Source: Escherichia coli | GTDB lineage: Bacteria; Pseudomonadota; Gammaproteobacteria; Enterobacterales; Enterobacteriaceae | Assembly: GCF_009931435.1 (NCBI RefSeq) | Contig: NZ_CP043414.1 | Reading direction: 5' to 3' (one strand) | Length of the DNA stretch: 64,000 nt | Program-made: the position numbers | Shown: positions 36,001 to 39,000 of the stretch, one piece after another | Layout: every line of letters begins with the position of its first letter | Position numbering within the stretch: position 1 is the stretch's first letter

Positions 36001-39000
36001 GGCGCAAAGTAGCGGTAACGCGCGGGTATCACTCGTTAGCATGTTTCCCCCGTTCAGTTTTGCAGGTGAGTTTTGAACAAATGTATTTCTGCTTTCAATT
36101 TGTTCATAAACCTTAGGTGGACATTGCACATATTTCCGACGAATAGATCACAATTTATGCTATTTTGATTTTCACGGTTGCGTTTGTTCATGCTCGTAGA
36201 GTCAAACTGTGGTTGCTATCACAGATATAAATGCGCAAGAACTGAACAATTGCATTAAAGATTTAAATATGTTCAAAGTGAAGAATGAATTATGACAATC
36301 AACGATTCGGCAATTTCAGAACAGGGAATGTGTGAAGAAGAACAGGTCGCGCGGATCGCGTGGTTTTACTATCACGACGGGCTGACCCAGAGCGAGATCA
36401 GCGAGCGTCTCGGGCTGACTCGCTTGAAAGTGTCGCGATTACTGGAAAAAGGGCATCAGTCCGGCATTATTCGCGTGCAGATTAATTCTCGCTTTGAAGG
36501 CTGTCTGGAATATGAAACTCAATTACGTTGTCAGTTTTCGCTGCAACATGTCCGGGTGATCCCTGGGCTTGCGGATGCTGATGTCGGCGGGCGACTAGGG
36601 ATAGGCGCGGCGCATATGTTGATGAGTTTACTTCAACCACAACAGATGCTGGCGATTGGTTTTGGCGAGGCAACCATGAATACGCTGCAACGCTTAAGTG
36701 GTTTTATTTCGTCGCAGCAAATTCGCCTGGTCACGCTCTCCGGTGGCGTCGGTTCTTATATGACGGGTATCGGGCAGCTTAATGCGGCGTGCAGTGTGAA
36801 TATTATTCCGGCTCCGCTGCGGGCATCCTCCGCTGACATTGCCCATACGCTAAAAAATGAAAATTGCGTCAAAGATGTTCTGTTAGCCGCACAAGCTGCG
36901 GATGTGGCGATTGTCGGCATTGGGGCCGTGAGTCAACAAGACGACGCGACGATCATTCGCTCCGGCTATATCAGTCAGGGCGAACAGTTAATGATTGGTC
37001 GAAAAGGGGCGGTTGGCGACATCTTAGGCTACTTTTTTGATGCAAAAGGTGACGTTGTCACGGATATCAAAATACATAACGAACTGATTGGCTTACCTTT
37101 AAGCGCGCTGAAGACCATTCCCGTCCGGGTTGGCGTGGCAGGGGGAGAAAATAAAGCCGAAGCCATCGCCGCTGCAATTAAAGGCGGCTATATCAACGCA
37201 CTGGTTACCGATCAGGACACAGCAGCGGCGATTTTACGTAGTTAAATTTGCATGACCTTATTACCGGGAATGATGGAGAACGTATAGAGGAACAGACAGA
37301 ACGCATAAGCCGAGGATAATCTAATGGCTCGACTCTTTACCCCTTCAGAATCAAAGTACTACCTGATGGCGCTGGATGCAGGCACCGGAAGTATTCGGGC
37401 TGTGATATTCGACCTGGAAGGCAATCAAATAGCAGTGGGACAGGCGGAGTGGCGGCATCTGGCAGTACCGGACGTTCCTGGTTCTATGGAATTTGATCTC
37501 AACAAAAACTGGCAACTGGCGTGTGAGTGTATGCGCCAGGCGCTGCACAACGCCGGCATAGCCCCGGAGTATATCGCTGCCGTTTCGGCATGTTCGATGC
37601 GCGAAGGCATTGTTTTATATAACAATGAAGGAACACCGATCTGGGCCTGCGCCAATGTGGATGCCAGAGCGGCGCGCGAAGTTAGCGAACTTAAAGAACT
37701 GCACAACAATACCTTTGAAAACGAAGTTTATCGCGCCACCGGACAAACGCTGGCTTTAAGCGCTATTCCCAGATTACTTTGGCTGGCGCACCATCGTTCT
37801 GATATCTACCGACAGGCGTCGACCATCACCATGATCAGCGACTGGCTGGCCTATATGCTCAGCGGTGAACTGGCGGTGGATCCCTCTAACGCTGGCACCA
37901 CGGGACTTCTTGATCTAACCACCCGTGACTGGAAACCTGCATTGCTGGATATGGCCGGACTGCGGGCCGATATTCTTTCTCCTGTCAAAGAAACCGGCAC
38001 ATTGCTGGGCGTGGTAAGTTCACAAGCGGCGGAACTCTGCGGTCTGAAGGCGGGCACTCCGGTGGTCGTTGGAGGAGGCGACGTGCAACTTGGTTGCCTG
38101 GGGTTAGGCGTTGTCCGTCCGGCACAAACCGCTGTTCTTGGCGGTACATTCTGGCAGCAAGTTGTAAATTTAGCCGCGCCGGTGACAGACCCAGAAATGA
38201 ACGTGCGCGTTAATCCTCATGTTATTCCTGGCATGGTACAAGCTGAATCTATTAGCTTTTTTACCGGACTCACCATGCGCTGGTTCCGCGATGCTTTCTG
38301 TGCCGAAGAAAAACTGATTGCCGAACGTTTAGGCATCGACACCTATACGTTGCTTGAAGAGATGGCAAGTCGTGTGCCGCCTGGGTCGTGGGGCGTAATG
38401 CCGATATTCTCCGACAGAATGCGCTTTAAAACCTGGTATCACGCTGCGCCTTCCTTTATTAATTTGTCTATTGACCCGGATAAATGTAACAAAGCGACAT
38501 TGTTCCGTGCGCTGGAAGAAAATGCGGCGATTGTATCAGCGTGTAACTTGCAGCAAATCGCTGATTTCTCGAATATTCATCCTTCATCGTTAGTCTTTGC
38601 AGGCGGAGGTTCAAAAGGGAAATTATGGAGTCAAATTCTCGCTGATGTCTCGGGATTACCCGTCAATATTCCGGTGGTCAAAGAAGCCACCGCATTAGGA
38701 TGTGCCATTGCAGCTGGCGTCGGTGCCGGAATTTTTTCATCAATGGCAGAAACCGGAGAACGCCTGGTTCGCTGGGAACGGACGCACACACCAGACCCGG
38801 AAAAGCATGAACTTTATCAGGATTCACGCGATAAGTGGCAGGCAGTTTATCAGGATCAGCTGGGGCTGGTTGATCATGGACTGACGACGTCGTTATGGAA
38901 AGCGCCTGGGTTATAGTTTCATTGACAGCCACATCATGATGACTGTGGCTGTTAGTTTTTGAGTATTGGTATTCTTATTTCCCTTCTTTAGAGCTGGCTT

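Follow-up and report, generated by a model that had tools for sequence, protein, structure and literature searches.

The 249 bp separating lsrA from lsrR in the window, i.e., the whole 64-kb stretch of Escherichia coli DNA that was analyzed, are the known bidirectional switch of the two divergent operons that import and destroy AI-2. The finding is correct and ordinary: the lsr system and its control by LsrR and cAMP-CRP are already known, and this regulation is textbook quorum-sensing biology. The region contains two copies of a 33-bp palindromic box and two CRP sites (Table 1), whose positions are conserved and whose spacing is rigid among orthologous regions, and we consider it likely that the switch as a whole is explained by two LsrR tetramer operators together with these two CRP sites. 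A preliminary description of this DNA had marked 36043-36291 as an lsr divergent control region, and these limits lie immediately inside the two start codons, the ATG of lsrA (36042, minus strand) and that of lsrR (36292). It had also regarded the lsr system as intact; in agreement, all eight Lsr proteins were full length and gave end-to-end NCBIfam equivalog matches far above the curated cut-offs (1.2 to 2 times), with LsrA at 954 bits, LsrC at 668, LsrD at 597, LsrB at 700, LsrF at 561, and LsrG at 192, and the gene lengths were those of K-12. LsrR matched PDB entries 4L5I and 4GO1 with E=5e-200, and the divergent lsrA/lsrR layout around a shared control region was present in every one of the 22 orthologous loci compared.

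Table 1. Elements of the lsr control region and neighboring genes, in window coordinates.
Feature	Position	Strand	Sequence or remark
lsrA-lsrR divergent intergenic control region	36043..36291		249 bp
p-lsrA-box motifs	AAAACTGAA 36061..36053; AAAACT 36074..36069	-	AGTTTTG direct repeat
Box A	36074..36106		TGAACAAATGTATTTCTGCTTTCAATTTGTTCA; putative LsrR tetramer operator, lsrA promoter
Predicted lsrA -10 hexamer	36110..36115	-	TAAGGT; implied start near 36103, inside the box A right hexamer
Published promoter-up mutation site (G>A, C>T; Hauk 2016)	36124..36131	-	TGTGCAAT
CRPI	36137..36152		CGACGAATAGATCACA (minus strand TGTGATCTATTCGTCG); half-site-type CRP site
Central degenerate third box	36158..36190		TGCTATTTTGATTTTCACGGTTGCGTTTGTTCA; third-best PWM match
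CRPII	36208..36223		TGTGGTTGCTATCACA; lsrR-proximal
Box R	36243..36275		TGAACAATTGCATTAAAGATTTAAATATGTTCA; core of the published p-lsrR-box
lsrA	34507..36042	-	511 aa; first gene of lsrACDBFG (operon 30243-36042)
lsrR	36292-37245	+	317 aa; NCBIfam equivalog, 616 bits
lsrK	37324-38916	+	530 aa; NCBIfam equivalog, 1001 bits

The locus and its gene order are the same as in the lsrR-lsrA region of E. coli K-12, and 244 of the 248 K-12 positions were identical. Five differences from K-12 (MG1655) were found, at coordinates that may be off by 1 bp. Four are substitutions: G replaces A beside the lsrA ATG (36043), the spacer of box A has C instead of T (36097), that of CRPII has T instead of C (36217), and 36234 is C instead of A. 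The fifth is an additional A that separates box A from the -10-like hexamer (36108-36110); it places box A 1 bp farther off and was seen in none of the other sequences in the set of 27. No change affected box R, CRPI, the central half-site, or either hexamer of box A. The exact 249-bp version was present in 27 of 4178 E. coli genomes, and 4150 carried the region at 95-99% identity.

Box A was reported in the preliminary description as a palindrome, and the perfect 9-bp inverted repeat was indeed there, with arms TGAACAAAT (36074-36082) and ATTTGTTCA (36098-36106) separated by a 15-bp spacer. The box is an exact TGAACA-N21-TGTTCA, a pattern with exactly two matches in the 64 kb, both inside the 249-bp region, when only 0.22 would be expected even with one mismatch allowed; box A and box R share 76% identity. 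When the 249 bp were shuffled 2000 times with dinucleotides preserved, perfect inverted repeats of 9 bp or more arose with P=0.056, and thus the palindrome taken alone exceeded chance only marginally; it is the comparative evidence that makes the feature solid. Among 27 orthologous sequences from 12 genera, with LsrR identity down to 64% and including Escherichia, Salmonella, Citrobacter, Kluyvera, Superficieibacter, Edwardsiella, Klebsiella, Enterobacter, and Buttiauxella, the outer hexamers of box A were invariant and the spacer was variable. The hexamers of box R were near-invariant, with CGAACA/AGTTCA found only in the group of Klebsiella, Enterobacter, and Buttiauxella. The conserved part of the 9-bp arm amounted to only 7-8 bp. 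Box A scored 36 bits with the position weight matrix (PWM), against a background maximum of 7.5 over 180,544 positions; the PWM P values calculated against the coding background were optimistic, owing to composition, and were replaced by those from composition-matched shuffles. The preliminary description had missed box R, CRPI (the CRP site placed to drive lsrA), and the 7-8 bp limit of the conserved arm.

The proposal that the palindrome is an LsrR operator is very probably right, because box A is 76% identical to a box that coincides with the published p-lsrR-box and because its hexamers are invariant across genera. The p-lsrR-box, located at -237 to -197 from the lsrA ATG (Hauk 2016), corresponds to 36240-36280 in the window after a +1 indel; box R includes both of its essential motifs, AACAAT (36245-36250) and AAGATTTAA (36258-36266), and TAATGCA, published at -214 to -208, is found at 36251-36257. 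At the lsrA promoter, the agreement with published sites was only partial. The critical motifs of the p-lsrA-box are AAAACT and AAAACTGAA (PMC8487509, restating Xue 2009), and these occupy 36053-36074, where they adjoin the palindrome on the lsrA side and overlap it by 1 bp. This raises the alternative that LsrR reads these A/T-rich direct repeats in the lsrA leader, the palindrome being no determinant or serving another factor. The motifs are restated as the p-lsrA-box by the footprinting group itself (PMC8487509), the AGTTTTG repeat is real, with two copies 13 bp apart, and the p-lsrR-box layout of a 6-bp motif, a 7-nt gap, and a 9-bp motif can also be drawn here. However, the p-lsrA-box motifs showed no conservation outside E. 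coli and varied even within Escherichia (AGCTTTG, AGTTCTG, AATTTTG), whereas the palindrome hexamers did not change. Moreover, the two published boxes are out of register relative to TGAACA, the p-lsrR-box motifs being inside a palindromic box and the p-lsrA-box motifs beside one, and the motifs called in subsequent studies along this line (NNNTTTTNN...) are very loose. We therefore regard the direct-repeat reading as unlikely, and keep the palindrome as the probable operator.

The CRP-like site of the preliminary description, now named CRPII, is a 9/10 match to the CRP core TGTGA-N6-TCACA. Matches of at least 9/10 had a P value of 0.019 in the same set of 2000 shuffled sequences, and five sites with no more than one mismatch were found in the 64-kb window, versus 1.8 expected, so that this match, taken alone, also exceeded chance only marginally. 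A chance CRP match at 36208-36223, with CRPI as the only functional site, would agree with these figures and with the observation that, at stringent thresholds, no CRP site is predicted in roughly half of the Enterobacteriaceae genomes that carry lsr. The comparative evidence nevertheless makes the site solid: the TCAC core was invariant, 26 of 27 sequences had TCACA, the exception being Salmonella with TCACG, and most genera kept TGTGG, within variable surroundings. In addition, the distance from the CRPII center to the start of box R was exactly 27.5 bp in 26 of 27 sequences, Klebsiella-type architecture included. Figure 2 of Hauk 2016 gives the order p-lsrR-boxes, CRPII, CRPI, p-lsrA-boxes, and 36208-36223 corresponds by position to the CRPII label, which denotes a CRP box. 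A chance match is thus very unlikely, and CRPII stands as a conserved, very probable CRP site; relative to the candidate lsrR starts, it could be drawn at both -41.5 and about -61.5. The second site, CRPI, is of another kind: GATCAC was invariant across genera and the other half was poor (5-7/10 among sequences), and the window copy has a 6/10 core match with one perfect half. Between its center and the end of box A there are 38.5 bp in the window, against 37.5 bp in 25 of the 27 sequences.

The predicted lsrA -10 hexamer follows the pattern TAnnnT (TAAGGT, TACCGT, TACTGT, TACGCT), which was kept in 26 of 27 sequences; the exception was Enterobacter hormaechei, where CRPI is lost. The center of this hexamer is 32 bp from the CRPI center, which is class II (-41.5) geometry, suggesting an lsrA start near 36103 with CRPI acting in the class II arrangement. 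Transcription starts of lsrA and lsrR were sought in Cappable-seq supplements and by text search, and none was found. A simple sigma-70 consensus scan of the intergenic region gave no promoter and no terminator, a null result that fits activator-dependent promoters and is not positive evidence for them. On the lsrR side, there were two candidates for the -10: AACAAT would fit a class II arrangement, and a hexamer rich in A and T within box R would fit class I. Two other candidates were rejected: the central TTTGTTCA as the -35 element of either promoter, since the matching -10 and start would leave CRPI downstream of the start, and TGCAAT (36129..36124) as the native lsrA -10, since it is not conserved and CRPI would fall at -27.5. 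At the site of the published promoter-up mutations, the mutants would read TACAAT and TGTAAT, apparently new near-consensus -10 hexamers. Published up-mutations such as TGTACAAT may thus have created a -10 hexamer rather than removed a CytR site, which is the simpler reading.

In the explanation that we favor, box A and box R would each serve as a full 33-bp operator and accommodate a single tetramer of LsrR, built as a dimer of dimers. Box A would begin 3-4 bp downstream of TAAGGT and cover the predicted lsrA start, and therefore bound LsrR would exclude or block RNA polymerase; box R would likewise overlap the lsrR promoter and leader. cAMP-CRP would activate both promoters, from CRPI at class II distance from the lsrA -10 and from CRPII 27.5 bp upstream of box R, and phospho-AI-2 would free the DNA of LsrR. 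Published work has both LsrR and CRP acting here, with CRP binding and activating the region, and describes the p-lsrR-box as essential. Of 14 up-mutants selected in the lsrA direction, 12 depended for their gain on p-lsrR-box mutations about 200 bp away (Hauk 2016), and the screen reported derepressing changes within box A rarely or not at all. Repression of lsrA also depends on box R despite its distance; this implies that operators some 16 helical turns apart cooperate, and we infer that they do so by looping. A different role for the inverted repeat, as a hairpin in the 5' leader RNA of lsrA that would influence stability or translation, is scarcely credible: the minus-strand RNA arms do form a 9-bp stem in a -11.7 kcal/mol structure, but the z-score was only -1.85, with 9 of 200 shuffles folding equally well, the invariant arms offer no covariation to support pairing, a start near 36103 would remove the upstream arm, and the box recurs upstream of lsrR and, degenerate, in the untranscribed center, as fits a DNA site.

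The central degenerate box was a small unplanned result. In E. coli, its right half TTTGTTCA (36183-36190) is intact and its left half has decayed to TGCTAT; it gave a shuffle P of 0.08-0.09, which is non-significant on its own. Every region of the 248-250-bp type had the box at the orthologous position, +83/+84 relative to box A. A single core position was mismatched in Salmonella, Edwardsiella hoshinae, and Serratia sp. H1w (shuffle P<0.0005), and the GTTCA of the box was a conserved island within an otherwise variable stretch. It was absent from the architecture of Klebsiella, Enterobacter, and Buttiauxella. We suggest tentatively, as a possibility that falls somewhat short of probable, that the real LsrR element is the DeoR-like 33-bp TGAACA-N21-TGTTCA and not the A/T-rich pairs, and that the ancestral Escherichia/Salmonella-type region holds three such boxes 83-85 bp (about eight helical turns) apart, with two CRP sites interleaved, as a phased array for tetramer cooperation, by looping or higher-order assembly, over 250 bp. 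No mention of a third box or of LsrR looping was found in the part of the literature that was searchable. The lsr promoter is a widely used AI-2-responsive part in synthetic biology, and only loose A/T-rich motifs have so far defined its operator. The practical value of the present results is modest: engineering of the switch would be put on a rational footing by a clean and conserved definition of the operator, by the fixed distances among operators, CRP sites, and the -10 hexamer, and by a possible third operator, all of which would also aid in judging the many "LsrR boxes" claimed at other promoters.

Salmonella enterica is the system where Lsr was defined. Its lsr region is also 249 bp long, box A and box R are exact TGAACA-N21-TGTTCA, and CRPI and CRPII are at the same distances; the central box is near-perfect, TGAATAAATGAATTTTTATATGATAAATGTTCA (one core mismatch, +83 bp), whereas its left half is decayed in E. 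coli. The closest structural relative of LsrR is DeoR of Bacillus subtilis (SorC/DeoR subfamily; PDB 8R7Y), and the two proteins were homologous over their full length (E=1.7e-27), with LsrR R44 and R49 aligned to the base-contacting R34 and R39 of DeoR, so both arginines are kept. The DeoR operator ATTGAACAAAATTTCAATTACCAATTTACATATGTTCAA is TGAACA-N24-TGTTCA; it consists of two half-operators and is bound only whole, by one tetramer, a dimer of dimers (PMC11229326). This operator shares both outer hexamers, TGAACA and TGTTCA, with the LsrR boxes, and by this analogy one LsrR tetramer would occupy each box. The spacer is 24 bp in the DeoR operator versus 21 bp in the LsrR boxes, and the inner DeoR sub-sites TTCAA and TTACA have no recognizable counterpart in the latter. 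The single DeoR operator overlaps the -35; the two or three operators of lsr, by contrast, are spread over about 200 bp, with CRP sites among them. The effectors are dR5P for DeoR and phospho-AI-2 for LsrR. The arrangement also resembles the loops of deoP (DeoR/CytR), gal, and lac, in that operators are spaced by whole helical turns (83-85 bp, about eight turns), full repression needs a distant operator, and CRP sites lie between operators; unlike in those three systems, looping by LsrR is so far an inference only.

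In this segment of an E. coli chromosome, the lsrA-lsrR intergenic region had counterparts of 100% identity in 27 complete E. coli genomes and of 95-99% identity in 4150 others; out of 4178 E. coli genomes, no more than these 27 share the exact sequence. The annotation of the closest genome reads tam-lsrGFBDCA / lsrRK, followed by an autotransporter. All eight Lsr open reading frames had the K-12 lengths and end-to-end NCBIfam equivalog matches, well over the cut-off, so the lsr system, which the preliminary description called apparently intact, is intact at the sequence level. 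Five differences from MG1655 were found across the intergenic region. One is an additional A between the palindrome and a -10-like hexamer, which was seen in no other of the 27 orthologous sequences compared. LsrR carries Glu38 where the K-12 protein of the PDB entries has Asp; this residue lies just before the DNA-recognition helix and is the sole difference within the first 76 residues. Downstream of lsrK, the large autotransporter gene is one reading frame broken by an in-frame TAA, with loss of ~350 residues at the C-terminus; strain 2013C-4282 has an intact copy of this gene (1806 aa, 'ECSE_1600 family autotransporter', 99.4% identity, gap-free), and K-12 has the pseudogene yneO at this position.

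Both features of the preliminary description were confirmed at its positions: an inverted repeat of two perfect 9-bp arms around a 15-bp spacer, and a CRP-like site matching 9 of 10 positions of the CRP core. With dinucleotide-preserving shuffles of the 249 bp giving P=0.056 and P=0.019, respectively, each alone was only marginally unusual, and the case for their being real is comparative. A repeat finder showed a pair of 33-bp copies, boxes A and R, that share 76% identity and lie 169 bp from each other; the palindrome is box A. These copies were the only two exact matches to TGAACA-N21-TGTTCA in 64 kb, where 0.22 would be expected even allowing one mismatch. The preliminary interpretation was essentially right, yet incomplete, having overlooked box R. 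This second copy coincides with the published p-lsrR-box, placed between -237 and -197 relative to the lsrA ATG by Hauk et al. 2016, who name AACAAT and AAGATTTAA as the sequences that LsrR needs for binding, on either side of TAATGCA (-214 to -208); their coordinates were shifted for the 1-bp insertion before mapping.

Features of the lsr control region and other sites in the window
Feature	Coordinates	Sequence	Remark
Other CRP-like matches	7914-7929; 16902-16917; 20092-20107; 28458-28473	TGTGATCTAGATCGCA at 20092	TGTGA-N6-TCACA, one mismatch; 28458 just upstream of yneE
Intergenic region	36043-36291		lsrA ATG (36042, minus strand) to lsrR ATG (36292)
Repeat beside lsrA	36052-36059	GTTCAGTT	complementary to AACTGAAC
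Published p-lsrA-box motifs	36074..36069; 36061..36053	AGTTTTG direct repeat	lsrA strand
Box A	36074-36106	TGAACAAAT (36074-36082), ATTTGTTCA (36098-36106)	palindrome
Additional A	36108-36110	A
Up-mutation site	36131..36124	TGTGCAAT	minus strand
CRPI	36137-36152	GATCACA	half-site type
Central box	36158-36190	only TTTGTTCA intact	candidate
CRPII	36208-36223	TGTGGTTGCTATCACA	CRP-like site
p-lsrR-box	36240-36280		Hauk et al. 2016, insertion-corrected
Complementary repeat	36240-36247	AACTGAAC
Box R	36243-36275		second copy
Essential motif	36245-36250	AACAAT	inside box R
Intervening motif	36251-36257	TAATGCA	inside box R
Essential motif	36258-36266	AAGATTTAA	inside box R
LsrR codon 38	36403-36405		Glu
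Autotransporter gene	39398-44866
In-frame stop	43808-43810	TAA	codon 1471

An LsrR scan of representative genomes gave 22 orthologous loci, all with a divergent lsrA (22/22), and Salmonella, Klebsiella and Enterobacter sequences were added from a plasmid collection. The intergenic length was constant at 248-250 bp in Escherichia, Salmonella, Citrobacter, Kluyvera, Superficieibacter, Edwardsiella hoshinae and a few others. Alignment of these regions revealed a few conserved islands, the sequence between them being free: box A (TGAACAAA ... TTGTTCA, the 9-bp arm being conserved over just 7-8 bp), a hexamer on the lsrA strand (TAAGGT, TACCGT, TACTGT or TACGCT), GATCAC(A/G), a central GTTCA, TGTGG-N6-TCACAG, and box R. 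In the shorter region (about 213 bp) of Klebsiella, Enterobacter and Buttiauxella, box A was perfect and box R relaxed (CGAACA-N21-AGTTCA). Buttiauxella sp. A111 (locus L022, about 2265-2390) carries a ~122-bp insertion between CRPI and CRPII, leaving the CRP centres 189 bp apart versus the usual 66, and Enterobacter hormaechei (locus L055, about 1060-1080) has apparently lost CRPI, so the core spacing is not inviolable in the short architecture. In a contig labelled Izhakiella australiensis (L013), the intergenic region and LsrR were nearly identical to those of Citrobacter species, which suggests contamination, misassignment or recent transfer. More repeats containing GTTCA or TGAAC lie at 36052-36056 and 36240-36247, and CCGTTCA, adjoining the lsrA ribosome-binding site, is partly kept across genera.

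The proposal that the palindrome is the LsrR operator for the lsrA promoter held only in part, and sits uneasily with the motifs published for lsrA. The p-lsrA-box motifs, which include AAAACT (PMC8487509), fall beside the palindrome on its lsrA side, overlapping it by 1 bp, which by the refutation criterion of the preliminary description speaks in part against the proposal. We regard recognition of these motifs by LsrR at lsrA as unlikely: the AGTTTTG repeats are conserved in no other genus and vary within Escherichia, whereas the palindrome is invariant; moreover, the essential p-lsrR-box motifs are internal to the palindromic box, which puts the two published boxes in different register. 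We think that it is the palindrome that truly determines LsrR binding, and that the pair of published motifs arose as a by-product when two A/T-rich footprints were aligned.

The spacing of box A, CRPI, the TAnnnT hexamer, CRPII and box R was strikingly rigid. The distance from the end of box A to the CRPI centre was 37.5 bp in 25/27 sequences; here the additional A, which moves box A 1 bp away from the promoter and CRPI, makes it 38.5 bp. From the CRPII centre to the start of box R it was 27.5 bp in 26/27, short architecture included; with such conservation and fixed spacing, a chance match at CRPII is very improbable. The figure of Hauk et al. 2016 orders the elements as p-lsrR-boxes, then CRPII, CRPI and lastly p-lsrA-boxes, and TGTGCAAT is described there as 'very close to CRPI', which fits the assignment of both CRP sites in the table. 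The TAnnnT hexamer is 32 bp away from the CRPI centre, which fits class II CRP promoter geometry (-41.5). This would put the lsrA start near 36103, within the right hexamer of box A, so that LsrR on box A would cover +1 to about +30, adjoining the -10. No lsrA or lsrR transcription start was found in the searchable literature and a plain sigma-70 scan of the region was empty, hence both promoter assignments are predictions; that of lsrR may be class II, with AACAAT as -10, or class I. Up-mutations of TGTGCAAT to TGTACAAT and TGTGTAAT were ascribed to a CytR site (Hauk et al. 2016). They create TACAAT and TGTAAT, -10 hexamers close to consensus for which TTGTGA, 18 bp upstream, may serve as -35, and a new -10 would be the simpler explanation. 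An RNA hairpin in the lsrA leader is a weak alternative for the palindrome, given an MFE of -11.7 kcal/mol with a z of only -1.85, absent covariation support, and a predicted lsrA start that would truncate the hairpin.

When Hauk et al. 2016 selected for stronger expression in the lsrA direction, the gain was gone in 12/14 mutants once the p-lsrR-box had been restored, so lsrA repression requires an operator ~170 bp upstream of box A. With a position weight matrix made from boxes A and R, a central box was the third-best match in every region of the 248-250-bp type, its offset being exactly +83 bp relative to box A (+84 in this sequence), with box R 83-85 bp further on, ~8 helical turns either way. 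It had one core mismatch in Salmonella (TGAATAAATGAATTTTTATATGATAAATGTTCA), Edwardsiella hoshinae and Serratia sp. H1w and two in Kluyvera and UBA5654 (P <0.0005 in each, composition-matched shuffles per lineage), was weaker in Citrobacter, Superficieibacter and other Escherichia (P 0.001-0.02) and decayed in E. coli (P 0.08-0.09), and was absent from Klebsiella, Enterobacter and Buttiauxella, where P is not applicable. No mention of a third LsrR box or of looping at lsr was found in the searchable literature.

LsrR is a tetramer of the SorC/DeoR subfamily. Bacillus subtilis DeoR, in a 2024 structural study (PMC11229326), is a tetramer built as a dimer of dimers that resembles apo-LsrR (PDB 4GO1), and binds only its complete 39-bp operator, ATTGAACAAAATTTCAATTACCAATTTACATATGTTCAA, neither half being bound by itself. 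That operator is TGAACA-N24-TGTTCA, its outer hexamers the same as in the LsrR boxes, where the spacer is N21. An alignment to DeoR (8R7Y, E=1.7e-27) covered the full length of the window's LsrR, in which the DeoR arginines R34 and R39, which make base contacts in TTGAACA, are kept as R44 and R49. Whole-operator binding by DeoR, the shared hexamers, the homology and the kept arginines suggest, by analogy, that each 33-bp box would be the operator for one LsrR tetramer. Upstream of an alphaproteobacterial LsrR homologue in Sinorhizobium meliloti (pSymB, locus L056, 1104-1136), GGATCA-N21-TGATCA shares the hexamer-N21-hexamer layout but not the hexamer itself, a hint that operator architecture may outlive recognition sequence. 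The lsr control system is already known, and the central box would be a modest, unverified extension of it.
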